Shown piece after piece: positions 18,501 to 64,000 of a DNA stretch of 64,000 nt. Each line of letters starts with the position of its first letter. Position 1 is the first letter of the stretch. The stretch lies in the NCBI GenBank assembly GCA_016720655.1, contig JADKKE010000010.1, positions 69,042-133,041 on the forward strand. Direction: 5' to 3'. Below the pieces are notes generated by a model that searched no databases, was not told where the DNA came from, and was given only the letters and a program-made list of their open reading frames with translations. The DNA is from Bacteroidota bacterium (GTDB taxonomy: Bacteria; Bacteroidota; Bacteroidia; AKYH767-A; 2013-40CM-41-45). The translations under genes were made by a program, and so were the position numbers.

Positions 18501-18501
18501 C

Positions 18502-19431: not shown

Positions 19432-19522
19432 GGGTTTTTATTTTTCTTGCACTTGATTTATTCATTGATTGGAATAAATCAAAAATATCTTAGTTGAAAA
19501 TTAGTTTTGAAATTAAATTGCT

Positions 19523-33621: not shown

Positions 33622-33700
33622 GTTGTTAGGTTATTGAGTTATTGGGTTATTAAGTTATTAAGTTATTGAGTTATTAAGTTATTGGGCTAAGGTCGGATAA
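33622..33700. repeat. Nonanucleotide tandem repeat (gttattrag/gttattggg), about 8 copies
   Basis: Read directly. It starts immediately after the asnB start codon region and is C-free on the plus strand. Confidence 0.9.
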
Positions 33701-37605: not shown

Positions 37606-37776
37606 CGAATGCTGTATAAAGTATAAAGTATAAAGTATAAGGTTCTGTGTTTTAGAACGCTCGTTGATTGCTTACATGATTTCAATTTATTCATAAATAC
37701 TGTTAGTGTAATGCATAAAATAAATTCCCTCCGACATCCTACCTTATACTTTATACCTTATACCTAATACCTTCAT
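37606..37776. repeat. Inverted pair of heptamer tandem repeats, (gtataaa/g) x4 and its reverse complement, bracketing about 95 bp of the promoter region
   Basis: gtataaagtataaagtataaagtataagg at 37606-37634, and ccttatactttataccttatacctaatacc at 37740-37770. Confidence 0.85.
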
Positions 37777-40933: not shown

Positions 40934-41703
40934 CGTAGAGGATAAGATTAATTGCCTAAAGGCCTGCTTTTTCGCCTGCAAAGGTAATTTTTTCCGCTGC
41001 TTAAGGAAGAAAAACTTATTGACAAAAAGTTATAATATGTTAATCTTAAGTCATTTGCAAAATCCCCTCTGTGCTCTCTGCGTCTTTGCGAGAAATTTTA
41101 TCGCGCAAAGTCGCAAAAGAGCGCAAAGATTTGGAACGAACCGCCGGCATTTCACTCCCGCCCTACCCGTGCTCCGCTCATTCTTCGCTCGCCCGGGGTT
41201 AGAATAATGAGTGTAACGCTCCTTAAAAGGTTCTAGTTTACAGCAGTTCCTTTATATTCTTAAAGATTAAAACCACTAAAATTTATACCCAGAGATAAAT
41301 TAAAAATTTAAATAAATTCCAATTATTTGAAGTGTAGGAAATAATGTATCTTGGTCAGAGGAATTGAAAAAAATACCATCTGTAAGTTTCGTAATCAAAT
41401 TTTTGAATTGTTCTTTCGAAGAAATCGATCAAAACAATAAATTAAATGAACATTAAAATACTTTATCTTTGCAAACTTAGAAGAAAATAAATGAACGTGT
41501 GGTTTCATTCTCATTCTTTCGATTTATATGCAAACAATTGCATAAACCCAACCAAAAACAGAGTATACGCAACGAGTTGCGTAAACATAACCGTTATGCG
41601 CAACTTTAACTCTTTCATAGTATTTTAGTAAAATAAATAAAAACTTAAAATATGGCATTGCAAACAGTTATTCCGTTAAGGCAGGTTCTTTTTCAAGCTT
41701 ACT

Positions 41704-42292
41704 TTGAAGCAATTCAAAATGCACAAGCTCCAGAAAGATTGTACAGTGAAGTTCCTTGAAGGGTTAGAATTTGCTAGCACAAATGATAGAACATTCATCG
41801 GTATATTAAAAGAATTAGGCTTTTTGGATACCAATAATGTTCCGACAAAAAGATATTATGAATTTTTGGATAAAGATGTCGCTCCTGGGGTTTTAGCAGA
41901 GGGGATTAGAGAAATGTTTTCTGATTTGTTTGCAATTAAAAAGGATGCTCAGAAAAATGAATCAAACGGAGGTGTATAATAAATTGCGCACTCTTTATGC
42001 TGGCAAAAAGAAAACAGATAATCTTATAAAATTAATTGCATCAAATTTTGTAGCCTTATGCAATCTTGCTGATTTTGATAGGAGCACGTCAGAAACATCT
42101 AAAGGAGATGGTAAAGAAAAACCTGAACAACCCACGGATAAACCCAAAGAGTTTCAAGAGGATTTGGCACCAAATCGGAAGCACAAGAAACTGGATATTG
42201 ATGGATTACAATATCATATAAATATTGTCCTTCCTGATACAAAAGATCAGGCTGTTTACGATGCAATTTTAAAAGTCTTCGAGACCATTTAG
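41704..42292 (+). CDS. Hypothetical protein of about 195 aa, apparently frameshifted near 41930..41980
   Basis: Two overlapping ORFs read as one sensible sequence across the overlap (..IKKDAQKN / EVYNKLRTLYAGKKK..). It is the first gene of the AT-rich island. Confidence 0.35.
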
Positions 42293-42301
42293 GATAAAAA
42301 T

Positions 42302-42871
42302 ATGGAGGAACTATACAATTTTGTTTACCGCGGTCTGCTCACAGATGAGAGTTTAGATAAGGCTAGGTAGAAAGAACCTTTCAAAGTTTGGAAAGAAGAA
42401 GAACACTCTCTTATGAAGGCTCTATCATTTGAGATGCTCGATGACGACAACATTCAAAAAGCAAGACAAATGTCTATTGTTTATATAGCATTACATTCTT
42501 TTGAAAATTCAGTCCGGAATTAGTTAAGTCTGCAATGGCAGAGAAGTTTCTTGAGACTTGGTGGGAAAAAAAGTTCCTGAGAGAATTAAATCGAAGGTAA
42601 AACAAGACAGGAAGAAGATTCAAAATTCAGGTGGCATGGGAGCAGAGGAACTGAAGAAATAATGTACTGCGATTTCGGAGATTTATCCTCTATCATAGTT
42701 GTAAATTGGGATCTATTTAAAGATATTTTGGCAGACATGGAGTGGACAAAGGCTGTTCTTTCAACTTTAGAAAGATCTCGTAATATAATTATGCATGGCG
42801 GAATTGTAACCCGAGAGGACATGGAAAGAATAGGAATAAATATTAGAGCTTGGGTAAGACAAACGGGATAA
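42302..42871 (+). pseudogene. Swt1-like HEPN domain gene (predicted RNase), broken by three or more frameshifts/stops
   Basis: The reconstructed sequence reads ..LHSFENSVRN / LVKSAMAEKFLETWWEKK / VPERIKSKVKQDRKK... / YCDFGDLSSIIVVNWDLFKDIL...LERSRNIIMHGG. It has the R-x4-H HEPN motif and FGDL..II..NW..F typical of the Swt1-like HEPN family. Confidence 0.55.
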
Positions 42872-43045
42872 AAGCAAGCGAATAACAGCACATTTGCAAT
42901 AGTCTGGCATTCATGCACTGCTGACTATTTGTGGTTTTAAAAAGGTCAGTGCTCCGCATGAACATTTGTGATAAAAAGCCTGCCCATCGCAAATCTGCAA
43001 CCCGTTGGCTCAGTACGAACTAACTACAATACTTAAATTATCCTT

Positions 43046-43264
43046 ATGAATAGCAAACGAAAAGCAGAAATCAGAGATGCTATACTTCAGAAATTCATCG
43101 GAAATCAAACATTTGAGTGGAAAGACATTAAAGAAGGAGAATGGTACTCAAACATCGACGAGAGTTATTACGTTATTGAAAATCAAATTAAACATTTAAT
43201 CGGTCAAGAGCATCTAAAAATGAGGAGCACCCAATTGGTGAACACCATTATTTTAGAGGAATAA
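43046..43264 (+). CDS. Hypothetical small protein
   Basis: ORF only. It lies in the AT-rich island. Confidence 0.3.
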   Translation: MNSKRKAEIRDAILQKFIGNQTFEWKDIKEGEWYSNIDESYYVIENQIKHLIGQEHLKMRSTQLVNTIILEE

Positions 43265-43363
43265 ATTTAACAGAAAAGGGTTGGAGCATTTTGTCTGACA
43301 TAAAAGAGTGAAGGGTATGTTGCACAACTTCGCAAAAGAAGGCGGAAAGTAATATGGTCTGTC

Positions 43364-43660
43364 GTGGTTGGTATTATTACCATACTTACATTTTTGTTGA
43401 TGATCCGGAGAGATTTCTTTGATAGTACATCAACATTAAAATCTGATCCAAAGCCAATTTCAACTCCTACGATCAAAACGGATAGTGTTAAGCCCGTCAC
43501 ATTAATTAATGGTAAAGAACAAACCAGCTTTACTCACCAAGATAGTATTGAATACCTTGCAATCGATGACTTATACTTTGGTAAAATGCAAACGGAGAAT
43601 AGTAGCTTTCTAGTATTGCTGGAATTACCTTGGCCAAATAGTAACTCACGGGAATTATAA
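43364..43660 (+). CDS. Hypothetical small membrane-anchored protein
   Basis: N-terminal TM segment (MVGIITILTFLLMI). Confidence 0.3.
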   Translation: MVGIITILTFLLMIRRDFFDSTSTLKSDPKPISTPTIKTDSVKPVTLINGKEQTSFTHQDSIEYLAIDDLYFGKMQTENSSFLVLLELPWPNSNSREL

Positions 43661-43703
43661 GTATTCTTTATCACATTGTTATGATATCGGCGATACTATT
43701 CAA

Positions 43704-43958
43704 ATGAATCTTAGCTATCAAGCTCCTCCTCTTGAACGCCTTATTAGTGTAATTTGTTCCGAATACGGAAAAACTTTGTCTATAAACAAAGCGACATATA
43801 AATGGGCTACGCCTTACAAGAAAATTAAGGTTGAGTTTCTTTCAAAGGACAAATGTATTACATTGGATATAATTAATAATAAATTAGAAAATGAGAATAG
43901 ACTAAAACAAGAAAAAGAAAATGCCCAAATGCTTAAAGACGATATTAAAAAACTTTAG
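43704..43958 (+). CDS. Hypothetical small protein
   Basis: ORF only. Confidence 0.3.
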   Translation: MNLSYQAPPLERLISVICSEYGKTLSINKATYKWATPYKKIKVEFLSKDKCITLDIINNKLENENRLKQEKENAQMLKDDIKKL

Positions 43959-44222
43959 CAGGACCTGGTTGTATTTGATGCCGGAATGCGCATAACATAA
44001 AGATTAAACGCAATATTTTTGGAGTGGGCGGGCTCGCGTAAGCTAGCGCAGGCGTCCGTGATGCTTCGCACTAGTTTACGTCCGCCCTATCCACACTTTG
44101 TAAACTATTCGGTACATTTGAGTGTGTAGTGACTGATCTCCCAAAAATACTCCGTTAATCTATTCTACGTTTGCGCAACTTCTTCGCGACTTAAGAAATT
44201 TCAACATTATTGATAGAACCAA

Positions 44223-45157
44223 ATGAGTCTAGTCGTTTGCAAAGTTATTAACGATAAAATATACATTGAATCAGATTCAAGAATCACGGATATTGATGAG
44301 GGTAGGAAAAAGGAATCAATTTATGGGGTCCTTAAAGCTATCATTGTCCATCCACGAATATGTATTTCATTTGCTGGATCGATTTACTTGGCAGAAAAAG
44401 CTGTAAGAGAAATTTATAATCAAAAAAGTGTATCGTCACAATATTTGATAGACACCTTACTAAAATACAACTCTGATGGAAATAGAGTTGTATTTACTTT
44501 GTGTACATTAAGAAATAATAAACCGAAATTACAAAAATCGCAAATAATAATGTTGAAACCGGTTTGACTTCTGCTTGGATTGGTGACATCGATGGATTTA
44601 GTGAATTCCAAAAACAATTTCATGAACTTATAAGAAAGAAACAACCAGAAAAAGAATCTTTGACGCAGGCCTTTTCAAGAGTAATTGAAAATCCCAATAT
44701 TCCTACCATTGCAGATTTTCAAGTGAGCACGATTACAGAAACAGGTCCATATGGCGACCGCTTCTTTCGTTACTTTGAGAAATTTACTTTAACCCTTGGC
44801 AGATCACAGACGATAACACTAAAACCTCATGAGAATTCTTCATCGAACGAGAATCATTCCATTGCTAATTCCCATATAATCAACTGGGGATCTGCGGCAG
44901 ATGGCTCATACGGAGTCTGCTATTTCGTTTCAGTTACGCCAGTCATTAATGCTATTGCGTATTACTTTGCACATGGAAATTTTGGAGTTTTATTCTGCCC
45001 TAAATTGAGTTTTGAAGGAATAGTGATCAGGAACATGGACAACATCAAGTTTTTAGAATTTATAAAATCGAAATATAACATTCCTCTAAGAGGATTCATG
45101 TTACGAGATAATTCCGCAGTTCAACTTATAGATATGCGGTTTCCCGCCAAAACTTAG
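44223..45157 (+). CDS. Hypothetical protein(s): two ORFs overlapping by 4 bp at 44564, possibly a single gene of about 310 aa with a frameshift, or a coupled pair
   Basis: ORFs 44223..44567 and 44564..45157 (the latter with a TTG start). No recognisable domain. Confidence 0.35.
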
Positions 45158-45185
45158 TCCATAAAACACTGTCGAATTTGCCTTG

Positions 45186-45420
45186 TTTGCCGCAGTGGAA
45201 GGAGGATATATCTTATGCTAGCTCGGAGCTGCTATTATTTCCCAAATTTATCTATACCCGCCACGCCGGATATGTCCCCAGTTAAAAGTTAACAGCTGTG
45301 AAGGATAAGACCCCAGTTAAAAGTTCGCACCCGCTGCGCAGGATATGACTCCAGTTAAAAGTTCAAAGCTGAGAAGGATGCTAACGCTGCGAAGGATCTC
45401 CAAGCCAAAACTTTTACCTC
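45186..45420. repeat. Island repeat array A: 5-6 tandem degenerate units (gctgYgMaggatatgaccccagttaaaagtt..., about 18-38 bp)
   Basis: Read directly. It ends with the variant gctgcgaaggatctccaagcc. Confidence 0.85.
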
Positions 45421-46446
45421 CACTCGTTTGTCATAATTCGAAAATGTTATGCAGCCAAAGACTGAGATCAACCTTATTTAGTACCAGTTTTACTCAACTG
45501 TAATAGCTGATATCTTAAAGCTGTTGATGGTGGATCCTCGGTGGACATTCATCTTGACCTTTTGTTGTACAGACTATTTAGGAAACCCATTAACAATCAA
45601 TGGAATCAAAATAAAAAATGGGAAAAATGAGTATAAGAAGTTCGTTAGCACCTATCTGACTAAAGTCAACAATAACTACAGGGACTTCATAACCAACTAT
45701 ATGCTATCCGGTGCTCGTTAGTGCATACATATGGTGAGTCTGATGCATCACGGCAAAACAGATTACACCACAACTTATATTTGGGGATCCTATAAGTTAT
45801 CATTTAAGTTTTGATATAAGAGATATCAATCTGGACATTAGCCTTTCGGACTTTATCAGTGAATTAATAGCAGCTATTCATTTGTTTTTTATGAGATTTT
45901 CTGCTATAAATTCAGACTGGTCGCTAAAATTATATTATCCTCAAAACCTAAAAGTATAATTGGAAAGACAATCAATTAAACTAGGAAATCCTATAATTTA
46001 CAAATCAATTCATCCATCTCTGGAAATTCTTGACAAAGATAATGACATAAGTCTTATTTGTAAGTTCATTAAAAATGAAATTGAAGAAGAAATCTATAGA
46101 CATTAAAAATATAAAAGATATCTTGTTACGCAAATTTCGCAACAACAGTGAACGATTGACTCTTGTCATCGTAGAAATAATGAAATCTCAAATCAACCCT
46201 GTGATTTATCAAAACATGAAATCAAAGTTGTAGAAAGTATTAAAAACTAAATTATCAAGTATCAAATGGACATAATTAACCCATACGAGAAAATTTATTT
46301 CGCAAAGTCCATCCTAAAAGGGATAATGTTTTATTATGAACAACTAGATAAAATTAATAAGTCAATTACATTGAAAAGAATTTTCCAATCAAAAGAAAAG
46401 ATGTCCAGTAGCAATTAATTTTCTTAATGCAATTCCTGAAGATGAC

Positions 46447-47313
46447 ATGCTCAACAATTTTTCTCAAAGTCATCCGCAATTGCAATCAGCAATGGAACGG
46501 ATTGATTTTTATTCAAACCTAAGTGTTGCTGAATTATCATATAATGAAATGCATATCATAATATATCTTGACCATTTACTTTTCAGTGCAATAAACATTA
46601 TGTTTTTTAAAGTAAAAATAGAAATTCCAAAAGCCATAAAAGATTTGTCAATAGATGAGAAGATAAAATATTTGATTGAAAATAAATACTACTACCTCCA
46701 AAATGAAAGCCCTTTCGCACGATGTTCATTTCCGCAAGCAGTAGCCTATTGTGATTCAGAAATTGAAAAGTTCAAAGAACTTCGTGCATCAGATTGAAAT
46801 AAATCCGATTACGGCAGAGATAAATAAAATGGTAGAACAATATCTATTTTTGGTTCAAGATAACATACAGGGCAATCAACTTATTTCACCACTTATTGAA
46901 CAAAAGTTTCCAGAGTTTATTGCAAAACTCAAACGAATGCTCTTGGATTCCTAGTTTCTTTGATATTACAGAAGCAGATAAAGAAAGAACATTTCATGTT
47001 TTTGTTCTTGGTGTTTTGCAGGGGAGAATTGAAGGTTACAATATTTCTTCAAATAAGGAATCAGGAGTTGGGCGATACGACATTGCCCTCACTCCAATTG
47101 AATTGAAGAATCCGAGTATTAATTGAAATAAAGAAAAGAGAAAAAGACAAAGCAAATATTGAAAACGAATTGGATGAAGCACTCAATCAGATTGAAAAAA
47201 AACTATATTTTACTGAAATGAGAAATATAGGCGTGCAAACGATTTTAAATGTTGCAATAGTGTTTGAGGGTCTAGAGCCGCATATCAAGTATAATAAATT
47301 TATTCATCACTAA
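46447..47313 (+). pseudogene. C-terminal part of a gene of the AAA-ATPase-like/PD-(D/E)XK (DUF1703-type) family, frameshifted, with the N-terminal ATPase region missing
   Basis: Three overlapping ORFs plus an extension. The motifs are ..FHVFVLGVLQGRIEGYNISSNKESGVGRYDIALTP and, after a frameshift, LIEIKKREKDKAN...LDEALNQIEKKLY, which together give GR.DI...IE.K. Confidence 0.5.
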
Positions 47314-47329
47314 GTAAAAAAGAAATTTC

Positions 47330-47425
47330 TCCAGCTGCGCAGAATATGTCTCGCTCTGCAGGATATGTCCATCTAAAAGCTCACCACTGCGAAGGATGCA
47401 AACCGCTGCGAAGGATATGACCTAT
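47330..47425. repeat. Island repeat array B (4 units, gctgcgcagaatatg.. / ctgcgaaggatgcaaac / cgctgcgaaggatatgacc)
   Basis: Read directly. Confidence 0.85.
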
Positions 47426-47452
47426 TCTGAACAGAATGATGTGTGAAAGCCG

Positions 47453-48061
47453 GTGTGTGAGATCATCCCGAACAAAATAATTATGAAAGAAATAAGTGAC
47501 TATAAACTGATAAGAGATGTTATAGTCATGCAACTTCAGAATTGGATGAAGGAACAAGGAGTTCATTCAAAAACTGAAATTGTTAAACTAATAAGACACA
47601 GATTTGAAAACAGGTATTTAAAACATATAAAATCTGTTGACAGCGGCTTTTTAATCATGGCTGTCTCCTGTTTCGTCATAGAGACATTGCAATCATTTAG
47701 GGAAGGTGTACCTGACACTAATGGAATGGGACCGAGAATGTTTAAGAACTTTTTCAATAATGAACAAGACAATTTCCCTGACTTTAATGAAGGAATATCG
47801 GTTGAATTTTATAAACACATAAGATGCGGAATTCTGCATCAATCAGAAACGACAAATGGCTGGAGAGTGCTTAGAAAAGGCAAACTACTTGACGAAACAG
47901 AATTTTCACTTAACGCAGAACTGTTTCTTGAATCGCTTAACAAAAGCGTGAATAAATATTTAAACGAGTTAGCTAATTCAGACTTCAATTCTAACCTATG
48001 GAAAAATGCATTTATCAAGTTGAAAGATATTTGCGAAAATTGTCACAGAAAAACTGTATGA
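47453..48061 (+). CDS. Hypothetical protein of 202 aa with a possible HEPN-like R-x4-H motif (RCGILH)
   Basis: Clean ORF between two repeat arrays. The motif match is weak. Confidence 0.35.
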   Translation: MCEIIPNKIIMKEISDYKLIRDVIVMQLQNWMKEQGVHSKTEIVKLIRHRFENRYLKHIKSVDSGFLIMAVSCFVIETLQSFREGVPDTNGMGPRMFKNFFNNEQDNFPDFNEGISVEFYKHIRCGILHQSETTNGWRVLRKGKLLDETEFSLNAELFLESLNKSVNKYLNELANSDFNSNLWKNAFIKLKDICENCHRKTV

Positions 48062-48089
48062 TACGAAATGACGATAGCAAGGAGCTGTT

Positions 48090-48205
48090 ATACTTACAGC
48101 TGCAGGAAGGATCTCATGATCCCCACCATCGCTGCGAAGGATCTCCAAGATCCTTTGCTCTTAAATTGTGTGATATTCATCCACTGATCAATGCTTTTCA
48201 GATCT
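48090..48205. repeat. Island repeat array C (2 units) ending in the terminal variant cgctgcgaaggatctccaagatcctttgctcttaaattgtgtgatattca
   Basis: The tail shares about 50 bp with array G at 56700..56745 and contains the palindrome aaggatc-tccaa-gatcctt. Confidence 0.85.
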
Positions 48206-48229
48206 GCTAATGCGTACCGGTTTTTAAAA

Positions 48230-48450
48230 GGGTGAATTACCACGGTGTGCTGTATGTTGTGTGAAAACCCGTGCACAAGGTTATTCCGCCTCTGGAGGCC
48301 GGTAGCTCCCTTTCATGACATCACCTTCAGGTATACTTGGTTCAAAGTGGCTTCGCAAATGGTGGCAATCCATCTCCTCAAGACATCAGATTATCGGTAT
48401 TAATATTTTCCGGGGGAGTTTCATATTTACTTGTTAGCGGCAATTTAGAA
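48230..48450 (+). repeat. Conserved element of about 200 bp, copy 1 (ttgtgtg...cgtgcacaaggttattccgcctctggaggccggtagctccc..tcatgacatcac..tcaggta..ttgg.tcaaagtggcttcg.aaatgg.ggca)
   Basis: About 85% identical to 55570..55790 on the same strand, and it contains a cctc(c/t)ggagg palindrome. It lies upstream of the Abi-alpha-like gene. Confidence 0.75.
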
Positions 48451-48478
48451 AGACACACACAATTTAACGAGATACAAA

Positions 48479-49276
48479 ATGAGCGAACAAAACAAAGAAC
48501 CAAGCGAAAACAAAGTAAGTGAAACAATCAATGCTGTTACAGGGCTTGTGAAAACAGTTCCGGTCTATACTGATACAATTCAACCTGCAGCCAAAGAAAT
48601 TGGAAAGACTCTTGAGACAGTAGCAAAAACAGTTAATGTAGCACTCTTTCCTTTAAAAGCATTAGTTTGGAGTTTTGAAAAACTTCAAATTTTTATTGAC
48701 ACGAAAGTATCTGAAAAATTAAAGAACACTCCTGAAAGTGAAATTAAAACTCCAAATCAAAATATGGTAGTTCCATTTGTGATTATCATGTCTGGTGATG
48801 AACCTGAACTGCAAGAACTCTTCGCGAATTTAATTGCATCTTCAATGGACAATCACACTTCTAATTTTGTTCATCCTAGTTTTGTGGAAACCATAAAACA
48901 ATTAACACCAGATGAAGCAAAAATATTAAGATACATTTCTAAAGAGGCAAATCTTCCTACCACCATTGCAATTCGGAGTGAATCAAGTAATCTGCAAGAA
49001 GGTGGTTGGGATATGTATAGACACGTTTCTCTTTTCGGTGAAAAAGCATTTTGTGTAAACCCTCATTTAACTTCTGTGGCACTTGACAACTTTATAAGAC
49101 TTGGTATTATTGAAATACGTAAAGATTATTCTTATACAGAAAAGAAAATATACTCGGAACTAATGGACGACAAAGAAGTGAAGGAGGTCATAGAAAATAT
49201 TAACAAAACCGAAGGCAGAAAAGTTAGAATCGTTGAAGAAATGGTTATCATTACTGACTTCGGCGCCAATTCATAA
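48479..49276 (+). CDS. Abi-alpha-like (DUF4393) abortive-infection family protein
   Basis: 265 aa. VPFVIIMSGDEPELQELFANLIASSMD...HPSFVETIKQLTPDEAKILRYI resembles the Abi-alpha family as I recall it. It sits in a defence-type island. Confidence 0.45.
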   Translation: MSEQNKEPSENKVSETINAVTGLVKTVPVYTDTIQPAAKEIGKTLETVAKTVNVALFPLKALVWSFEKLQIFIDTKVSEKLKNTPESEIKTPNQNMVVPFVIIMSGDEPELQELFANLIASSMDNHTSNFVHPSFVETIKQLTPDEAKILRYISKEANLPTTIAIRSESSNLQEGGWDMYRHVSLFGEKAFCVNPHLTSVALDNFIRLGIIEIRKDYSYTEKKIYSELMDDKEVKEVIENINKTEGRKVRIVEEMVIITDFGANS

Positions 49277-49309
49277 ACATTTGCGTAACAGACCACATTG
49301 AATACAGAA

Positions 49310-49440
49310 AATAACTGCAGCTAACATCCCCGCTGCGAAGGATAACCTGCCCGTTAAAGTATGCAACCCGCTGCGCAGGATATTACCTCTGTTAAAAGTT
49401 TCCAGCTGCAAGATATGTAATAGCTCGGGGGAAAGTTCTT
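49310..49440. repeat. Island repeat array D (3 units)
   Basis: cgctgcgaaggataacctgcccgttaaagtatgcaac / ccgctgcgcaggatattacctctgttaaaagtttcca / gctgcaagatatg. Confidence 0.85.
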
Positions 49441-50034
49441 GAATTGCCTGTGCGCAAGCTGATCCAACAGCGGAGGTAGGTGGCGATATTAGTATGCAAG
49501 CAAAGGTAATGGCGGAATAAGCAAATACACAATACCGCCCACAACATTTCCAAGCAATGGTTACTGCTTTGTGGCAGATAAGCAATTCGATAGTTTTTAA
49601 TTGTTTTACTAATAATCGACAACAAAAAAGAACAGGAGAAATTATTGTTTAATGCGTATTCAGAACATACCAAAAGTCCTTCTATGGCTTAAAAGGTTAT
49701 GTTTACAGAGTACCTCCACTACTTTTGAATAATGATGGATTAAGAAATTACTTTGTTAGTTGTAATCAAGCTCATGATATCCTAAAGTACTTTGCTTTTT
49801 CGATTGCTTTTCAAGTATTAATCACACTGATTAACAAAATGTTAACTGGATTAATTACAGTGCAGCTTACAAGAATGCTGAAGAAAGAAAGATTTGGGAA
49901 AAGGATGCCGACACCATATCAACTTGGTCTTTAATCGATTTTGTAGTTGAGCATCCTGGCACTTTACTATTTGGTATATCGACATGTATTGTTCGATGTT
50001 TACTTTCCGAAGGCACTGCCACTGTTTTAATACA

Positions 50035-50115
50035 ATTTAAGAAAGTTGAACCCCTGCTACGCAGGATATGACCCCGCTAAAAGTTCAGGCTGCAAAGGAT
50101 CTCATGATCCTTTTC
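50035..50115. repeat. Island repeat array E (2 units, the second being the ggatctcatgatcc variant)
   Basis: Read directly. Confidence 0.8.
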
Positions 50116-50604
50116 CATTCGGTGGTGTGATTTACAATCTACAGTTCTGGGCTTATAAAAGCACTTTTGGTGTCCAATAGTTCAGAAAATCAGGTGTGTT
50201 TACGGTCCTTATCGGAGGAATAAGGCAATCTACTTCGAACAGGGCTTCTTTATCATAGTAATTCCCGGGCGGAGCTGAGTGAACAGCGGCGGAGATGGGA
50301 AATGTGCTTCACTAGAACGGATAAAAGCATGATGCTATGAATATTAGATTTCATGTTTTTCGGTAGGGTGGAAGGTTTTATTGATTAGCTGGAATGGAAT
50401 CAAAATAGTGTCTCCTTACGTTATATTTGATTCAAAGAGAAGCGTTGGCAGGAATATTCTGGCTAATGCAGGCATATACTATCGAAGATCTTATATTATT
50501 GCAATCTGCATTTGTACTCAAAAGAAAATTCTAAGGCGTTCACACTTGCGATATTTTTTTCAGTTTGATTCTACACCACAAATGAAACATCTGGCCTATT
50601 AGGA

Positions 50605-51650
50605 TTGCTTCTTTGTTTCGCTCTTCAGACAAGCGCGCAAATTTTCAGTAAAGAATTTGGCGATATTAATGATACGGTTCAGATATCGGACATCCTTATT
50701 ACAAAAGATTCAAACATTGCCGTCTTTGCACGTTGCGCCCGAAATCCACTTGATGAACTTCTGTTCATCAAATTGGACACTCTGGGGGATACCTTAATGA
50801 CAAAACGATATTCAAATGCTAACAACTTGTTATTGTTTCTGTGGAGCAATCGAAATTTAGACAGTTCATTTTATGTAGTGATGACCAAAACAGATTCTGC
50901 GTTCCCATCGAATCTTGATAAAACGGTCAAATTATATGCCGAAGAGTGTTTATTTTCTGACTGACACAGTAATGGAATTTATGGAAACTCAAATTGGTGA
51001 TCGAGATTCACTTTTGTTCTTTGCAGGAGTGCATATAAAAGTTATTTGTTGAAGATGGACATTCAGGGAAACATTGTCAAGGAGATATTCTTTGGCAGTG
51101 ATGCGTTACACAGTTCCTATAACAGTCCTGAAATAGTGAATTTTATTGTTGATAGAAATCACAATATCATTTGTACGGGAATGGAGGGGGAAGTACATAT
51201 CCCGGAACATTGTTGCAAAGCACCTTCTCGTTAAATTAAATTCAAATGGCGATATTTCGTGGACTTTCTGCAATGCTCTCGCATACGAAGTTTATAACAG
51301 AAGTGGAAGAAAGTTCAGCTGGAGAATATTGGATAATTTCTAAATATTGGTGGATGGGGTCGGAAAGTGCTTCTATAAATATTGTAGATACGAATGGTAC
51401 ATATCTCTGCAGCATATACGGCCCTGGTGATGTCGCGACTACCCACTCCGCTTATTCATTGGCCGACAGCAATCTTGTTTTTACCGGTCGTGTCAATGGT
51501 AACCGGGCTTTCAGAATGGAAGTGAATTCTTCCCGGACGATCATCAATTATAAAATAGGGAATGCGCAGATCGCAACAGAAGCCGTCTTAAACGGAGATC
51601 GAGCAATTTTTGGATCATCGCATACACTCGCTATGGTTGATACACATTAA
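50605..51650 (+). pseudogene. Beta-propeller repeat protein gene, fragmented over four overlapping ORFs
   Basis: A repeated motif of about 50 aa (..DTLGDTLMTKRY.., ..DIQGNIVKEIFFGS.., ..LNSNGDISWTF..) is shared with the minus-strand pseudogenes at 52.4-55.4 kb. A signal-like N-terminus (MLLCFALQTSAQ) is present. Confidence 0.4.
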
Positions 51651-52139
51651 GAGCAATTGCTTCCTGAAGATTCAATAGTCTTAAACCCGACTGTCAACCC
51701 CGGATCTGGGCCGATAATTCGTATTTGGAAATTGTACGGGGACAAATCCAGTTTTTATCAACAAGCACGCCATGGAATTGTTCATCCGGAATCACTATGG
51801 ACAATGGCTGTATTTCTTTAGAACAGAGCAGTTGGAGATGAAGGAGTATTTACTTTTTCCAAATCCCGCAACTGGCAGTTAAATTTCAACAGGAAAACCT
51901 CGCCTTCGGAGCTGTTTTACCTTGTACGACGCACATTCAAATTTGATGGTCAAAGTTTCGAATCCAACCACAAAAAACAATAATATTATTCAACGCCGAT
52001 TATTTTTCATCCGGAATGTATTTTGCCAATTTTGTCACGAGTGTGGAAGCTTGTATTCCGGAAAAGTCATCTTATACATTGAATTAAAGGAAATTTGAGG
52101 CAATACCCGCTCCGCAGATGTGTCTATCTTTTTTTAACC

Positions 52140-52260
52140 ACAGAGGGTCCATGAGATTGTAGATTGTAGAATGCTGATTGTAGATTGTAGATTGTAGATT
52201 GCTGATTGGTGATTTTAAATTGCTGATTGTAGATTTAAGAACTTCTCTGTGCTGCTCGGT
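52140..52260. repeat. Tandem repeat of approximately gattgtagatt / gattgctgatt units, about 9 copies
   Basis: Read directly. It is C-poor on the plus strand. Confidence 0.85.
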
Positions 52261-52403
52261 GTTTAAAAATGCATCCATTTAAAATTAAGCACTTTTAAAA
52301 AAAAATCAAGTCATTCAACATCACTAGGGATGCAGATTCATCAATGGTGTTGATTGAGTTAAGGAAATTTCTACAATCGAAATTAAATAAATGCTTCAGC
52401 CCA

Positions 52404-53758
52404 CTATTCAATCAAGTTTTCTACTCCCATTACCTTCGTTTCCAGAATTGATTTCAAAATGTAAAGTCCTGCTTCCAAATCTCCTTTTTCGATTCTGGTC
52501 CAATGTATTCTCAACTCTTAACATTTTTCTCCTCACCCTTCCTGTCGTGTCATAAAGTGTCAATGAACATTTTAGATTGTTTGGATTTGGGAATAATATC
52601 AGTTACCTTCACCATCTGTTTTAACAAGATAAATATCTTTGACTCCAATAGTTGATGCACCTAAAAAATCAGTATAACCACCAACCAAATATCCTCCGTC
52701 ACTATTTTGAATTACCTGTTGTGCGGCTTCACCACGTGGACTATCCAAAGCTCCAATAATTCTTGACCACAAAACATTTCCCTGTTCATCTGTTTTAAGA
52801 AGGTACATACTCATCGAATCAATAAAATCTTCCTGGGCACCACCTGTAATAATGAATCCACTATCCAAACATTGTTTTATGTATATATCAAACGGCATAT
52901 ACCCACCCGTAGAATCAGAAATTACTTTGTTCCAAAGGACATCCATATTATTATTCAACTTAGTCAAAATAATTTTATATCGTGATGTCCTGCTATAACT
53001 AACACCGGCAACAATTAACCCAGAATCAACTGTATTTGAAACGGATTGAGCAAACATCCTTTCGGAACCACTTAACTGAATAGTTTTATTTTGAAGTAAA
53101 TTTCCATATGAGTCCATCTGTAAACATAAAGTCCGCGTAGAATCCAATGTTCCCCATTCTTCTCACTGTAAAAAGTTCCCCATTTGTTGTTTGAAGAGTT
53201 TGGGATGTTACAACTTTATTGGTCTGATATTTTCTTTGACCATACAATATTTCCGGCGGTATCCATTTCAATAAAAAAGAAGCCATTGGATGTTTGTAAA
53301 TCACCGCTCAGAATAAATGATCCATTGTTCTTTTGAAAAATGGTCCGCGAAGTTAAGCCAATTGGGTCTTGTATTGTCCTTGGTCCAAAGTGTATCACCC
53401 ATATTGTTTGTTCTAATCAACAAAATTTCATTCAATACGCCACAAGTATCACCTGCAATCAGGTAACCTCCATCATTTGTTTGAATCAGTGATTTTCCAA
53501 AGGAATAAGAGTTCATCAAATATGTTTTATTCCAAATAATATTTCCATTTAGATCCATTTTGCATAATAACACACGTGTTGAATCTAATTCATCCATAAA
53601 CCCGGTAAAGGCATAATTACTGTCATTTGTCAAAATTAAATCTAACACAGATTCATAAGATGGACTACCTACAACTCTTTGCCAGAGTTAGTTGAGCGTG
53701 GGCAGTAGTTAAACATTAAACAGCTCCAAAACAATGCAATTTTTAGAATATTCTTCAT
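52404..53758 (-). pseudogene. T9SS cargo gene with beta-propeller repeats and a type-A sorting domain remnant, frameshifted at five or more sites including within the signal peptide
   Basis: Four overlapping minus-strand ORFs (motifs NGNIIWNKTY, GGYLIAGDT, DTLWTKD). The signal peptide is MKNILKIALFWSCLMF. The C-terminus gives ..FPNPNN..SLTLYDTTGRV...AGLYILK..VMGVENLIE when frames are joined. Confidence 0.45.
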
Positions 53759-53954
53759 GGGTCATTGGTTTGTAAATTCAATTAATTGAAAATTGATAGA
53801 TATAAAAACCAGATTCATCTGGAAAATATTTAAAATACTATGACAGCAACTTGATATATTGCTAAATTACAAAATTCTGGTTGTCCTGTTCTTATTTTTG
53901 GTTCCAGCTATTTTTTTTGTAATAATACATCAAAAACTATTTTTATTGCGTCAT

Positions 53955-54015
53955 CTATGTGTAAAGAAATCCCGTTGCGCAAGATATGACCCGCTGCGCA
54001 GGATACAATCGTCCT
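53955..54015. repeat. Island repeat array F (2 units: cccgttgcgcaagatatgacc / cgctgcgcaggatacaatcg)
   Basis: Read directly. Confidence 0.75.
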
Positions 54016-54071
54016 TTATTTTATTGTCGAAAAGGAAAGGGTAGATTGAAGTGTGTCGCGGCGAATTAATT

Positions 54072-55440
54072 TCAATTCATTACTACCAATCGATATATAT
54101 ATTTGGTGGAAGCAAGATTAAAGGAAATTAGATACGTTCCTGCCTGCAGTGAAGTTGGGAGTTCAATAAAAGGAGTAGCTTCCGAATGAATCACCATTGT
54201 AGGAATAATTAGTTTTCCTTGCAAATCATGAAGAGTTACAGATGTAATTTTCTCAGCAGGAATTGAAAAATTGAATCTGCTTCCTGAGCAGACCGGATTC
54301 GGATAAATTTTACTCTTTACAAACGCATCTTCACTGATACCGGCTAAAAGCAGATCTGAAATTCGAATCAGATAGCCTTCAGATCCCGAACCGACCCAAG
54401 CTTTTCCTGCTATATACAATTTATCATTCAGAATTAATGTTTCAGTTGCCTCTAAGGCTGATATACCCAAAGAATAATCTGCCAAGAGGCTGCCCAAAAG
54501 TATCACTCCATATAACTGTGCCTAAACGACCTATCGCGAGATAATTCCTGCATAATTAAGTTGATTTTGACCATTCGAGAACGACGATTGAGGTTCTGCC
54601 CAAATTAAGGAACCGGTTGTATCCACCTTTATCAAAGTTGAGATATTATTAAGTCCCAACAAATAACCATATGGTAATTTACAAATTTCATCCACTTCCG
54701 AATACCACGAACCAATATTATATGTTTGTTGCCATAAAATTAATCCTGTTGTATCAATACAAGTAGTTGGGGTTTTCGATTAGCAAAACAGTATCCGATG
54801 ACATTCCTCCAATAAGAATATTGCCATGGCGATGTTATGATTCCTCCATGATATTGAGTCGGAAATAAATCCGGAAGCCAGTTAATTTGCAATACATTTC
54901 CATCAGTCAGTCTTGATAATAATACAAAGTCATATCCATTTGCAGAACAATAAACATGACCAATAAGGTAGAGGTTGGAATGAATTTCAACGAGTCCGGA
55001 AGGACTAAAAACTGTATCTACCTGTGGTACATATGGAAATTTTGAAATAAAAAATTACCGGTTGAAGTATAAAACATCAGTGAAGGACAATAACTGGAGC
55101 CATACGAAGTTCGAAAAATTAACCATTAAATAATTTCCATTGGACAGCTCCTTGATTATTTGCCCTTCACCAACACTACCTGTTGTATCATCACGTATAA
55201 TCGTTACAATATTCCCGTCCAGGTCTGCTTTAATAGCGAAATATTCGTCAGGACCATTAAGGTACCATGCAGTGCCTGTTAAGAGCAACAAGCTGTCACT
55301 GGTAAGCTCCATATCATTGATGGTTGCATAATGCCGATTCAGAGCGGAAGAATATCCATAGGCAAAATCAACCTGCTGTGAAAATGAAATTTGAAGATCA
55401 AGCAGCATCAGCAAAAGAACGAGAGAAAATAATTTTTCAT
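54072..55440 (-). pseudogene. T9SS cargo gene with an intact type-A sorting domain, frameshifted upstream including in the signal peptide
   Basis: The C-terminal sorting domain reads IYPNPVCSGSRFNFSIPAEKITSVTLHDLQGKLI...AGTYLISFNLASTKYIYRLVVMN. The start MKNYFLSFF.. is out of frame with the 55055..55414 ORF. Confidence 0.5.
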
Positions 55441-55569
55441 GAGTAAACCGGTTGTATTTCTAAAGGGAACAATGAACCCAACCGTTACTGTTGAATGATG
55501 GCCTGTATGTGAGCTCATTCAGAATTGGCAGGGAATCGCTATAAATATAATAAAAAAAACCTTCTGAGC

Positions 55570-55790
55570 GGAATGTTGTGTGCTGGCACGTGCGCACGGT
55601 TATTCCGCCTCCGGAGGTCGATAGCTCCCCTATCATGACATCACTTCAGGTAGATTTGGATCAAAAGTGGCTTCGTAAATGGCGGCACTTCACCTCCTCG
55701 AAACAGCTGTTTTTGGTTTTAAGGATTTTCAGGGAGTTTTGTATATTTACTAGTACTGTGCCACTTTAACGCACCGCTTGAACTAACTGC
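55570..55790 (+). repeat. Conserved element of about 200 bp, copy 2
   Basis: About 85% identity to 48230..48450, with the palindrome cctccggagg. Confidence 0.75.
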
Positions 55791-56114
55791 TATCATATGT
55801 CCAGGTACATTCTCTCTATCCTTTTCTATTTTATCCTAAATTTTTTAGTTTGCTCAAACTCCCGATTCAATTTATTATTTAAGTGCAAAGAATAATATAA
55901 ATGCGGTCATTTCACCACTTCAATTTAAAACTTTTCATAAAGAAACTAAAAAGCATTTAAGACTTTTCCATTATATGATAATTCCAACTGGGATTCTCTC
56001 AATAAAGCTCAGGCCCCTTTTCGACTAAAAGTCAGAACAAATGGACTCAATTTTTTAAATACTCTACGATTTGAATACCCTGCTTCATTTGCCGATTCGG
56101 ATTCCTGTTTAATC

Positions 56115-56501
56115 TTGATGGACTTAAATAAAACCAAACTTTGTCTTTATCTTGAAGAAAATCAAGGTATGCAAGCATACCATCTGGCTGACTATCTGAA
56201 ACCATATATGCTATTTCAACGCTCTGGTTGGGAATGGCAAGAATTTATTTTATATAATCCATCCAATAGATACCTTGTTTCGTTTCCGGATTCACCTGTC
56301 TTTTTAAATGATTCCTTAATTTATGCTCTAGGCAATTATTATGGTGAAGGCGGATTTCAATTTATAAATGTGAACAACAATTCCTTCTTCAGAGTTGATT
56401 TTTCAAATTATGAAATACTTGAATGTTACCAAAGGGAATTTTTCTTTTACTTTACATTATATAATCGAGATTTAAACTCTAATAAATTTATTACAAATTA
56501 A
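56115..56501 (+). CDS. Hypothetical protein of 128 aa
   Basis: ORF downstream of copy 2 of the 200 bp element. Tyr/Asn-rich, no recognised domain. Confidence 0.3.
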   Translation: MMDLNKTKLCLYLEENQGMQAYHLADYLKPYMLFQRSGWEWQEFILYNPSNRYLVSFPDSPVFLNDSLIYALGNYYGEGGFQFINVNNNSFFRVDFSNYEILECYQREFFFYFTLYNRDLNSNKFITN

Positions 56502-56544
56502 CATTCTTCTCCCAAAATTAAACTCCCTTTGAAAATACTCCTTA

Positions 56545-56750
56545 CGCTTTTATAGCAACCCGCTGGAGGGTATGACCCCAGTTAAAAGCTAAAAGCTGCG
56601 AAGGATTCCAAAGATCCGGCCCGCTGCGAAGGATATGACCCTAGTTAAAAGCTCACAGCTGCGAAGGATGCTATCGCTGCGAAGGATCTCCAAGATCCTT
56701 TGCCCTTAAACTGTGTGATATTCAATTGTCTGAACTGTGATTTCGATGAT
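56545..56750. repeat. Island repeat array G (5 units, ending with the long terminal variant)
   Basis: gctggagggtatgaccccagttaaaagctaaaa / gctgcgaaggattccaaagatccggcc / cgctgcgaaggatatgaccctagttaaaagctcaca / gctgcgaaggatgctat / cgctgcgaaggatctccaagatcctttgcccttaaactgtgtgatattca. Confidence 0.9.
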
Positions 56751-56981
56751 TTATATGATTTCACTGATGTGCATCCATACTATTAGCTGGGATTGAAATA
56801 ATTGATTCATGTTCATCATTCCTAAAGAAATTTATTCAACACTGATTTCTCAAAATCAAAATAATCAAAATAATCATCAAAATCATAGTTCAGACAAGGT
56901 GCAGTTCAGACAAAAGTGTTTCATTAAAATCCCCAGCATTTGTTGGTTGTATCCCAAAAATCAATGGTCGAGATTTGGTCC

Positions 56982-57377
56982 ATGATTAAGGAGAAATATA
57001 AACATTCAGATTTAACGGCAAAGATTATCGGATGCGCTTTGGAAGTTCACAAGACTTTGGGAAATGGATTTCAGGAGGTCATCTATCAACGTGCATTGCA
57101 AATTGAAATGGCACAACATGGCCTCGCTTTTCAACGTGAATTCGAAATGCCTGTTTTGTACAAAGGAGAACAAATCGGAACACGAAGGGTTGATTTTCTT
57201 GTGGAAGAAATTATTTCGGTTGAACTCAAAGCACTCACACAATTAGAGCCGGTGCATTTGGCACAAGCTATTAATTACCTCGAAGCATATAATTTGGAAA
57301 TCGGGTTGTTGTTGAATTTTGGTGCAACAAGTATGGAAATTAAAAGATTAACAAATGGGAAATTGCCGGCAATGTGA
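56982..57377 (+). CDS. GxxExxY family protein (PD-(D/E)XK-fold)
   Basis: MIKEKYKHSDLTAKIIGCALEVHKTLGNGFQEVIYQRAL..ELKAL..H.AQAINYLEAYNLEIGLLLNFG has the family motif order. It is flanked by atcaYagttcagacaaRg direct repeats at about 56885-56915 and 57458-57485. Confidence 0.75.
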   Translation: MIKEKYKHSDLTAKIIGCALEVHKTLGNGFQEVIYQRALQIEMAQHGLAFQREFEMPVLYKGEQIGTRRVDFLVEEIISVELKALTQLEPVHLAQAINYLEAYNLEIGLLLNFGATSMEIKRLTNGKLPAM

Positions 57378-57604
57378 AATCTGTCTTAAACGTTTTAATC
57401 TCGTGATTAATTTTAATCTCAGTTGAATCAAACAGCGGCATTCAGTGTAATCACAAAAATCAACATAATCACAGTTCAGACAAAGGAGAATTACGGTAAC
57501 ACATGTCGTCCCTACGGGACTTCACCCCTTGTGTGCGCTTTGCTACCGACATTTCGTCCCAAACGGGACTTACTTGTTGTTCAATAAAACCAAGAGATAC
57601 AACC

Positions 57605-57705
57605 GTATACAATAGAATAAAATCCCGCTGCGCAGGATATAACCCCACTTAAAAATTAATTGCTGCGTAAGATGACGGAAGTTCGGCATCTCCATGCGAA
57701 GGATT
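57605..57705. repeat. Island repeat array H (3 degenerate units), the rightmost array, adjacent to the two-component system
   Basis: cgctgcgcaggatataaccccacttaaaaattaatt / gctgcgtaagatgacgg.. / gcgaaggatttaccac. Confidence 0.75.
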
Positions 57706-57760
57706 TACCACACCGCACAAAAACACTTCGCTTGAAGTGTATTGGTAAGAAAAACATTCC

Positions 57761-58401
57761 TCAAACTATCTTCCCCTTAATCGCCTTCGCCACCGCTTCC
57801 GATTTTGAATGAACCTGCAACTTCTTGTAAATGTTTTTGATGTGACCGTTTACAGTTTCAGGGCTGATGAAACAGGATTCTGCAATTAATTTATAGCTCA
57901 TTCCCTGAACAAGATATTTCACAACTTCTTTCTCCCTGTCTGAAAGGTCAAAATCATTCACTGCTTCTGCTGAGGGTTTATGTTGTACCATCTTCAACAC
58001 TTTTCTGGCTATGCTTGGTGTCATCGGAGAACCGCCTTCATAAACTTCTTTAATCGCGGCAAGCATTTGAACGGGAGGAGTGCTTTTAGAATATAGCCTT
58101 CCGCCCCGTTGCAAATGGATTGAAATATTCTATCGTTGTCATCAAAAATGGTCTCCATCAGGATTTTCACATCCGGAAAATTTTCTTTCGCGATTTTCAC
58201 CGCTTCAATGCCGGATATACCGGGCATTTCAATATCCATAAGAATAACATCAGGGTTTGTTTGCCTGATGTCATTTACAATGTCAGTGCAGTTGGCAAAC
58301 GCTCCGGCACATTCAAATCCCGAACTGCCATTAATAAGCTGGAACAATCCTTCACGTAAACTACGATTATCTTCAAAAATAATTACTCTCAAAGTTTTCA
58401 T
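57761..58401 (-). CDS. NarL/LuxR-type response regulator (receiver domain + HTH), with an apparent frameshift near 58090-58115
   Basis: ORF 58021..58401 is the receiver domain (VIIFEDNRSLREG...ILMDIEMPGISGIEA) and ORF 57761..58114 is the LuxR HTH (LSDREKEVVKYLVQGMSYKLIAESCFISPETV). The two join sensibly as ..AEGYILK / STPPVQMLAAIKEVYEGG. Confidence 0.75.
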
Positions 58402-58528
58402 CTGGCTCTTTAATTTTTTGTTAAAATGGCTGGAAGGAATTATTCACCTGTTTTACTTTTTGTTAATTGTGTTCAAGAACTCCGTTTCGCCATATTCATT
58501 TTTTGGTAAACTTTTGTATAGCGCTATT

Positions 58529-60421: not shown

Positions 60422-60658
60422 TTCTTATGCTTCAATTGATTGAGGACTTAAATTTTTGTAATAATAACACTGCAAATGTAAACTGTTCATAATTCCTCTG
60501 AAACCCCTTGAACATGGTGTTTTGTACTACTTGCATCAGCAAAACACCTTGTTTATGGTATTGCTCGGCTTTATTGATCGCTTCACCTTTGTCCACGTTC
60601 AAATAAACAATAATTTATTCTAACATCCAAAGCACTCGGGACTAAAAACCAAAACAAA

Positions 60659-61573: not shown

Positions 61574-61602
61574 ATTCAAGTCAAAATTTAAAATTTAACA
61601 AA

Positions 61603-62485: not shown

Positions 62486-62521
62486 ATTCAAGTCAAACTA
62501 TTAATAAAAAATCAAAATAAA

Positions 62522-63988: not shown

Positions 63989-64000
63989 TATTTTCGTGTA

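Follow-up and report, generated by a model that had tools for sequence, protein, structure and literature searches.

We analyzed a 64,000-nt stretch of DNA (the window; positions 69,042 to 133,041 of contig JADKKE010000010.1, from the Bacteroidota bacterium assembly GCA_016720655.1) and in particular an AT-rich, strain-variable island of 16.8 kb within it (positions 40934-57695). We take the host to be an uncultured species from activated-sludge-type metagenomes. The island is bounded by carB on one side and by the genes for a histidine kinase with TPR repeats and a LuxR-type regulator on the other. This agrees with an earlier reading of the letters alone (hereafter, the sequence-only reading), which placed it between carB and a two-component system. 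That reading also described the island as dominated by decayed genes, and this we can reject: all 13 genes of the island are intact in five short-read contigs, and the lesions are private to this assembly. Judging from the comparison with those contigs, the frameshifts in the window are almost certainly sequencing or assembly errors in the consensus, not pseudogenisation.

The left flank, which is conserved, is carB itself (38117-40933, minus strand), which encodes the 938-aa large subunit of carbamoyl-phosphate synthase and matches the Pfam families CPSase_L_D1/D2/D3. The left part of the window holds long intact open reading frames (ORFs); besides carB, these include a YfhO-like membrane protein, an asparagine synthase, and a cyanophycin synthetase. 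The left border of the island is the promoter region of carB, and it is common to L089, a contig from another metagenome assembly that starts inside the 5' end of carB and has the same junction as the window. (We refer to loci in public contigs as L001, L002, and so on.) The right flank comprises a LuxR-type response regulator (57761-58401, minus strand; 213 aa in related strains) and a 630-aa kinase of the TPR-HisKA_3 type (58529-60421, minus strand). The kinase protein sequence is identical in all 23 of the public contigs that were read (the index gives 28 blocks of the collection). Position 57695 marks the right border, 66 nt past the stop codon of the regulator; the 99% identity with L001-L003 stops there.

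GC content is 0.429 in positions 1-40933, 0.360 in the island, and 0.387 in positions 57696-64000. So, the expected shift towards A+T is real on the carB side, but it is weak on the right, where the border is not marked by GC content. As deposited, the longest ORF between 41 and 58 kb is just 265 aa, and ORFs in the flanks reach 1309 aa. Once the island is repaired, its coding density is about 68%.

We then asked whether the genes of the island are broken in related strains. A search with a 202-aa ORF from the island identified a 192-aa protein that is 99% identical, and the contigs that encode this protein supplied the rest of the island. Across five independent short-read contigs (L004, L005, L006/L088, L089, and L090/L091), which are 98-100% identical to the window, 13 of 13 island genes are intact. 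L089 carries intact genes of 214, 189, 304, 310, 349, 192, 279, and 144 aa. L004, L005, and L006 run from the regulator into the island, with intact genes of 145, 241, 483, 528, 500, and 144 aa and then Abi_alpha. Since no gene is broken in these near-identical strains, we interpret the frameshifts as errors. In the window, the only island genes without indels are the 192-aa HEPN gene and the GxxExxY gene.

The types of differences support this interpretation. Across 40934-57695, a comparison of the window with the references shows 151 substitutions and 171 indel events. Most of the indels (141 of 171) are of 1 bp, and they go in both directions (108 deletions and 63 insertions). The short-read references, compared pair by pair, have 170 substitutions and 3 indels in total. 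The indel:substitution counts of 171:151 and 3:170 are significantly different (Fisher p = 2e-37). For instance, the window has 82 mismatches and 99 gap openings or gaps against L089 (over 9651 nt) and 94 mismatches and 112 gap openings or gaps against L088 (over 5302 nt, from 47.4-52.6 kb). In contrast, L089 vs. L088 has 1 mismatch and no gap openings or gaps in 3108 nt; L088 vs. L004 has 15 mismatches and none in 8234 nt; and L088 vs. L005, which are naturally diverged, has 93 mismatches and 1 in 3764 nt. The density of indels is similar in coding and non-coding DNA (9.5 and 11.6 per kb). Indels that are mostly of 1 bp, that go in both directions, and that are equally dense in coding and non-coding DNA are the pattern of an unpolished long-read consensus. 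For a decaying pseudogene region, we would have expected lesions that are shared between strains and a spectrum dominated by substitutions. The sequence-only reading was thus correct that the sequence contains frameshifted genes, but the frameshifts are private to this assembly.

The noise is confined to part of the window. It begins 182 nt upstream of the start codon of carB and ends at 56567 (so, the noisy part of the island is 41115-56567). It peaks at 13-31 indels per kb at 48-52 kb and is down to 0-2 per kb at 57-61 kb. The kinase gene has no indels. The regulator gene has lost one A from a run of five at 58083, which splits it into ORFs of 126 and 117 aa; it is intact, with 213 aa, in all six of the related loci. 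A second noisy patch lies far from the island, in an internal duplication of about 3 kb (6841-9885 vs. 16639-19442; 96-97% identity), where the noise is in the left block. Over 6841-8510 vs. 16639-18305, the two copies differ by 36 mismatches and 9 one-base gaps, and a 510-aa gene in the second copy (16715-18247) is broken into overlapping ORFs in the first. This duplication is not AT-rich. Since noise is found in both the island and the duplication, it seems to track DNA that is hard to polish, because it is strain-variable or repeated, and not base composition or gene function. We also observed three overlapping ORFs on the minus strand at 9928-15711 (379, 276, and 1309 aa) that resemble a single giant gene with two frameshifts; an intact paralogue of 1289 aa is at 19523-23392.

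The probable origin of the sequence is in line with this. One of the fragment ORFs from the window was deposited at NCBI as a protein from a metagenome-assembled genome (MAG), with an IPQ03 locus tag, and sister loci are found in the assemblies GCA_016718125.1 and GCA_016718015.1. These two assemblies presumably come from the activated-sludge MAGs of Singleton et al., a set that was reportedly built from Nanopore reads with CANU and with Racon using --include-unpolished. We propose that 41.1-56.6 kb is a poorly polished long-read consensus in which about 1% of positions would have spurious indels of 1-2 bp. The poor polishing would probably result from variation among co-existing strains, which would leave little consistent read support.

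We then examined the repaired genes. The first two correspond to the candidate defence system PDC-M34 from PADLOC. The DUF5343 protein (41652-42297, plus strand; 214 aa in the reference; 5 indels in the window) matches PF17278 (1.3e-40). The intact reference matches the model for component A, PDC-M34A (PDLC04589), over positions 1-207 of 208 (5.3e-73), and two fragments of this gene from the window match it as well (3.4e-28 and 3.9e-23). Just 4 nt downstream, on the same strand, is a Swt1-like HEPN gene (42302-42871; 189 aa in the reference; 5 indels), which matches PF18731 (3.9e-13) and also the model for component B, PDC-M34B (PDLC04592), over positions 4-191 of 192 (7.3e-70). The R-x4-H motif of this protein is RNIIMH. 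So, the pair resembles PDC-M34 in its full-length matches to both models, in the adjacency of the genes, and in having the motif. It differs in that both genes are broken by consensus errors in the window; also, PDC-M34 is itself a candidate, by its embedding in defence systems. Our literature searches for DUF5343 with HEPN, or for PDC-M34, turned up no paper.

Abi_alpha (48479-49313, plus strand; 279 aa in the reference) matches PF14337 (6.7e-45) and the candidate PDC-S47 (3.2e-68). Like PDC-S47, it is a single-gene module, and the match is full-length. It had been described as intact, and its frame is indeed open in the window, as an ORF of 265 aa, but relative to the reference this ORF has 10 indels. 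These partly compensate for each other and garble the middle and the C-terminus of the protein. Together with the two full-length PDC-M34 components, the PDC-S47 match bears out the proposal that genes of the defence or abortive-infection type are concentrated here.

Two other genes encode members of the PD-(D/E)XK superfamily. A 349-aa protein (46266-47313, plus strand; 7 indels) has a C-terminal PD-(D/E)XK nuclease domain, PDDEXK_9 (PF08011, 4.4e-12). The 145-aa GxxExxY protein (56940-57377, plus strand; no indels) belongs to PDDEXK_3 (PF13366, 1.7e-37) and TIGR04256 (8e-41; 139.1 bits, as compared to a cut-off of 35). Neither protein matches any PADLOC model. Overall, Pfam and NCBIfam reproduced the domain assignments that had been made by eye (DUF5343, HEPN_Swt1, PDDEXK_9, Abi_alpha, PDDEXK_3, GxxExxY, and Por_Secre_tail).

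The 202-aa ORF, which had been noticed for its R-x4-H motif, turned out to be a 192-aa gene (47483-48061, plus strand), which has no indels and 2 substitutions in the window. We confirmed the motif: R114 and H119 are invariant in 36 of 36 sequences from the family, within an invariant RCGILHQxE. The predicted structure is of high confidence (pLDDT of 95.8) and has the four-helix up-down arrangement of HEPN domains. Nevertheless, none of the 36 family members matches a Pfam HEPN model at E <= 0.01, or any other Pfam family, and Foldseek with the 192-aa protein found nothing. One distant member is named "Apea-like HEPN" in UniRef, but we could not reproduce this assignment, and with no Pfam HEPN match we set aside an ApeA-like identity. 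By its predicted structure, the 192-aa protein is a HEPN-fold protein that lies outside any named Pfam family. The lack of a Pfam HEPN match also distinguishes it from other HEPN ribonuclease toxins (the HEPN/MNT toxins, AbiV, and the HEPN domain of Csm6). And unlike the HEPN/MNT toxins, it has no adjacent antitoxin-like MNT gene.

Another R-x4-H motif (RCSLVH) is found in an uncalled ORF of 135 aa (45554-45959, plus strand; 4661-5068 in L089), which lies in the 1.1 kb that separates the 310-aa gene from the 349-aa gene. From its sequence, this ORF may be a HEPN remnant. When it was aligned to the 192-aa family with hhalign, the probability was 3.6%.

The 310-aa protein (44223-45157, plus strand; 310 aa in the reference) has two indels in the window, with a frameshift near 44530. 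A profile search of 1.84 billion representative sequences identified 873 relatives of about 300 aa, but close homologues are few. The N-terminus of the family is M-[T/S]-L-V-V, and residue 2 is threonine or serine in 130 of 139 members. Asp18 and Lys37 are invariant in 43 sequences, and Gly51 is conserved in 41 of the 43. A passage of PMC8665760 gives the catalytic residues of the proteasome as Thr1/Ser1, Asp17, Lys33, and Gly47. Since the conserved residues of the family match this set, we predict that the 310-aa protein is a proteasome-like Ntn hydrolase.

The predicted structure is consistent with this. The AlphaFold model has a pLDDT of 53.5 overall, but it is good in the N-terminal 160 residues, and it has the alpha-beta-beta-alpha sandwich of the Ntn hydrolases. 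So, the 310-aa protein shares both the predicted fold and the catalytic residues of proteasome-like Ntn hydrolases such as HslV, Anbu, and BPH. It differs from them by an additional C-terminal domain of about 150 residues, which is modelled poorly. Eight of 43 members have TPR repeats at the C-terminus. These tails account for the only matches to the family in Pfam, or in profile searches of the PDB that included HslV, Anbu, and BPH; the core had no match in either. According to a passage of Fuchs et al. 2021 (PMC8665760), 22 proteasome-like families are known, and several of these are found in Bacteroidetes. The 310-aa family has no Pfam model that we could find, and we came across no paper that links it to defence.

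Homologues of the 310-aa protein occur singly and in varied contexts. One adjoins an HNH protein and a T9SS repeat protein (T9SS being the type IX secretion system, which is used by the host genome). Another is between a WD40 protein and an extracytoplasmic function (ECF) sigma factor, a third adjoins a polyprenyl synthase, and a fourth is among unknown genes. In L097 (8001-8924), the homologue comes after a tightly packed series of small co-oriented genes, with a ClpP-type protease, and is followed by RadC; from the gene table, we read this setting as the accessory end of a prophage-like structural module. We did not find any match when we used tblastn to compare the 310-aa protein to collections of phages and plasmids. 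A search of metagenome contigs with a 197-aa fragment identified one locus, at 60% identity.

The remaining genes of the island encode a 304-aa orphan, a 144-aa membrane protein, three T9SS repeat proteins, and a signal-peptide protein. The orphan (43046-43958, plus strand) has a central transmembrane helix; in the window, 4 indels break it into three ORFs, and it is intact in L089 (2149-3063). It does not match any family in Pfam, PADLOC, or NCBIfam, and no homologue was found among 5.8 billion proteins. The predicted membrane protein (49617-50040, plus strand) has 15 indels. The signal-peptide protein (55797-56521, plus strand; 241 aa) has 6. The sequence-only reading had singled out several "intact small genes" of open function, but most of them are fragments: 43046-45157 covers two genes with frameshifts (304 and 310 aa), and 56115-56501 corresponds to the C-terminal half of the 241-aa gene. 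After repair, this set comprises the HEPN-fold protein, the proteasome-like Ntn hydrolase, the orphan membrane protein, and the signal-peptide protein.

The three T9SS cargo genes encode a repeat-rich protein of 500 aa (50582-52082, plus strand; 33 indels) with a Por_Secre_tail domain (PF18962, 3.7e-07); a protein of 528 aa (52404-53758, minus strand; 11 indels; PF18962, 1.6e-08); and a protein of 483 aa (54072-55518, minus strand; 11 indels; Por_Secre_tail, 2e-05). Two of the three are on the minus strand, which contradicts the description of all the small ORFs as being on the plus strand. The 528-aa gene also lacks 229 nt that are present in L004, L005, L006, and L088. The junction is at 52601|52602, and we did not find a direct repeat flanking it. 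This gap may be a real deletion or a collapse during assembly. The T9SS and signal-peptide proteins are probably surface or secreted proteins that are unrelated to intracellular defence. Beyond the kinase, at 60659-63988, the window has three other T9SS cargo genes, whose C-terminal sorting domains are about 90% identical at the DNA level (61469-61573, 62381-62485, and 63884-63988); this region also includes an RCC1-repeat gene with tandem units of 150 nt.

We then compared the island to the corresponding region of related strains and species. Strains whose flanks are 99% identical have different genes past the regulator. L001-L003 (L002 and L003 being from GCA_016718015.1 and GCA_963852685.1) have a HEAT_2-like gene there and then genes for DUF6326, a cyclic-nucleotide-binding (cNMP-binding) protein, and DUF885. 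In L005, a 228-aa HEAT_2-like gene takes the place of the 241-aa gene. In other species, island genes were never found within 10 kb of carB (0 of 80 species), and carB followed by YfhO is kept in 8 of these. So, the island was correctly recognized as accessory and strain-variable: its content differs between near-identical strains, and other species lack its genes near carB. In the closest other species among the matches listed (91% identity for carB), the genes ahead of carB are those for an alpha/beta hydrolase and rpmH. As neither of these is present in the window, a simple empty site cannot be defined. We did not find exact matches to the proteins Abi_alpha, carB, the GT4 glycosyltransferase, YfhO, or P0121. 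We also noticed that, about 4-8 kb beyond the kinase, L001-L006 contain matches to Imm11 immunity proteins and a second pair of TPR-HisKA_3 kinase and regulator. The conflict-related or variable character of the neighbourhood thus extends past the window.

We did not find any sign of an integrative element at the borders, as the sequence-only reading had also reported. ARAGORN found no tRNA genes in the window. Pfam found no integrase or transposase domains among all of the plus-strand stop-to-stop segments of at least 40 aa, or among selected segments from the minus strand. Rfam had no hits at gathering thresholds in the window, or at E <= 1 in the clean reference sequences. And we found no border repeats around the island. 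We therefore rejected a tRNA-targeted integrative island, for which there is no tRNA or tmRNA target, no integrase, and no flanking direct repeats. The island resembles classical defence islands and integrative islands in its low GC content, the clustering of defence-type genes, and its variability between strains; it differs by lacking a tRNA, an integrase, flanking direct repeats, and a definable empty site.

Most intergenic spacers from 45 kb rightwards contain clusters of direct repeats in a single orientation. These clusters are present in all of the strain variants (L001, L002, L005, L088, and L089). The first (45257-45404, plus strand) has units around GCTGCGMAGGAT, and further clusters are at 47331-47431, 48080-48190, 49329-49417, 50053-50110, 53971-54019, 56557-56773, and 57624-57704. 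There are two repeat units: A, or CCCGCTGCGCAGGATATGACCCCAGTTAAAAGYTCAC, and B, or GCTGCGAAGGATCTCCAAGATCCTTTGCCCTTAAACTGTGTGATATTCA, which has a hairpin of 8 bp. We found 71 copies of the motif in about 45 kb of variable-region sequence from the five strain variants. To the left, it is absent from 45 kb, except for scattered matches with two mismatches inside genes; it is absent from about 10 kb beyond the kinase, except for one isolated two-mismatch match inside the kinase gene; and it is absent from 85 other loci. A GC-rich intergenic block of motifs (CTCTGCGTCTTTGCGAGAAA ... GCGCAAAGTCGCAAAAGAGCGCAAAG) at 41050-41180, just upstream of carB, is unlike the island repeats. The window also has tandem repeats with periods of 7-8 nt: GTTATGA (10.6 copies, at 5278-5351), GTTATTGA (6.9 copies, at 33622-33684), GTATAAA and TACCTTA as an inverted pair (37614-37773), and AGATTGT (11.7 copies, at 52153-52235); these are intergenic.

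The variable genes also share a 5' leader. This sequence of about 230 nt immediately precedes six unrelated genes, among them Abi_alpha (48246-48478, plus strand) and, as a second copy, the 241-aa gene (55564-55796). Other copies are at L001:13820-14120(-), L001:15500-15800(-), L002:19200-19535(-), and L005:17340-17640(-). The leader has the invariant runs GAATGTTGTGTGA, GGTAGCTCCC, and TGTATATTTAC. RNAalifold gave a weak covariation term of -1.05, and the leader had no Rfam match, so we do not claim that it is a structured RNA.

The GxxExxY cassette (56774-57623, plus strand) is absent from L001-L003 and is flanked by a 53-nt inverted repeat (I1). Its left junction cuts a degenerate repeat unit, and a full unit begins at its right junction. 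We did not identify a recombinase gene in the window or in the loci that we read; a Y1 transposase is present in some strains only, roughly 8 kb past the kinase.

Overall, we conclude that this is a defence-type variable island with known candidate systems, and that it is not decayed. We consider it very likely that the region is genuinely strain-variable, that its 13 genes are intact in the population, and that the appearance of decay is an artefact of the consensus. Seven of the genes would be stand-alone or two-gene conflict modules: the PDC-M34 pair, the 192-aa HEPN protein, Abi_alpha, the PDDEXK_9 protein, the GxxExxY protein, and the Ntn hydrolase. From what is known of their families, the HEPN proteins might be triggered by infection to act as RNases, via R-x4-H, and the PD-(D/E)XK proteins might be triggered to act as DNases; either activity could lead to abortive infection. 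The Ntn hydrolase may be a peptidase or an amidase whose C-terminal domain or TPR repeats would sense or recruit a partner. Recombination at the oriented repeat clusters may add and remove cassettes.

We considered several other explanations. First, this could be a general flexible region, in which the nuclease genes are selfish or toxin-like, the T9SS cargo provides surface variation, and phage defence is not its role. T9SS cargo and the signal-peptide protein take up about 5.2 of the 11.4 kb of coding sequence; PADLOC has no match for the GxxExxY or PDDEXK_9 proteins; PDC-M34 and PDC-S47 are themselves predicted candidates; and some homologues of the 310-aa protein are beside housekeeping-type genes. 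However, within 8 kb there are two HEPN proteins with R-x4-H, Abi_alpha, and two PADLOC candidate systems, and one 310-aa homologue, as we interpret the gene table, comes last in a prophage-like structural module. So, we think this explanation is unlikely.

Second, the island could be an array of cassettes that is punctuated by repeats, in which each gene has a leader and/or 3' repeats and is exchanged by recombination. Such an array would be integron-like, but without intI or attC. This idea is attractive for the 71 co-oriented copies of the motif, which lie in the spacers and are absent from 45 kb on the left and about 10 kb past the kinase; for the GxxExxY cassette, which L001-L003 lack and whose junctions are at repeat units; for the swap of the 241-aa gene for a HEAT_2-like gene in L005; and for the leader ahead of six unrelated genes. 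We still consider it quite unlikely. No recombinase is encoded in the window or the other loci, and the Y1 transposase is distant and is present only in some strains. The repeats are direct, with just an 8-bp hairpin, so they do not resemble attC sites; the genes are on both strands; the basis of the idea is two junctions; and ordinary homologous recombination involving dispersed repeats would also produce such junctions. A true integron, or a cluster of attC sites lacking an integrase (CALIN), we rejected: there is no integrase domain, and the repeat units are direct and contain one 8-bp hairpin, unlike the imperfect palindromes of attC sites (R''/L''/L'/R'). The island does share with integron cassette arrays and CALINs the small accessory or defence genes, the repeats in one orientation, and the polymorphism in which cassettes are present, but it has no intI, its repeats are direct, and its genes are on both strands with their own upstream leaders.

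A more elaborate version would combine a recombinase-less cassette array that is peculiar to this lineage with a new anti-phage effector, namely, the Ntn hydrolase with its sensor-like C-terminal domain. We consider this combination to be improbable.

Finally, true decay, in which the genes became real pseudogenes because the island was no longer under selection or because some local mutational process produced numerous small indels, is very improbable: the frameshifts do stand in the deposited sequence and are annotated as fragment proteins, the loss of 229 nt from the 528-aa T9SS gene resembles a genuine deletion, and the density of substitutions is also raised at 48-52 kb, but the ratio of indels to substitutions is 1.13, as compared to 0.018 in natural pairs of strains at the same locus, the 1-bp changes include insertions as well as deletions at equal density in coding and non-coding DNA, Abi_alpha has compensating frameshifts just a few bases apart, every indel is private to one assembly while five others agree, and similar noise is found in an internal duplication that is not AT-rich.

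Several points weigh against our interpretation that these are intact defence genes in a noisy consensus. Of the indels, 29 are one-base deletions at bases that are not repeated, and many of the indels are outside of homopolymers. Two sister MAG contigs that presumably stem from the same long-read project are clean at this locus, at 3-6 indels in 14-22 kb, so the noise in the window is local and unusually strong. The 229 nt that are missing at 52601|52602 may be a real lesion. The argument for errors relies on comparison with other assemblies, and the window's apparent tie to the Nanopore MAG study is based on the style of its locus tag and on the sister accessions. As to function, PDC systems owe their candidate status to "guilt by embedding" alone, so the defence roles here are predictions, and some homologues of the 310-aa protein sit in ordinary-looking contexts.

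Where frameshifts cluster in a strain-variable island of a long-read MAG, other assemblies should be compared before concluding that genes have decayed. Here, such a comparison removed the claim of decay and turned "small intact ORFs" into parts of larger genes. The repaired island holds complete copies of two PADLOC candidates, whose functions are predicted, and its oriented repeats and shared leader may account for how islands of this kind change their content without integrases. The 310-aa protein is a lead: it represents a sizeable family (873 cluster representatives) that has the predicted fold and the catalytic residues of the proteasome and is not filed in Pfam. With its frames restored, the island offers a compact list of candidate abortive-infection genes from a wastewater Bacteroidota species that has not been cultured.

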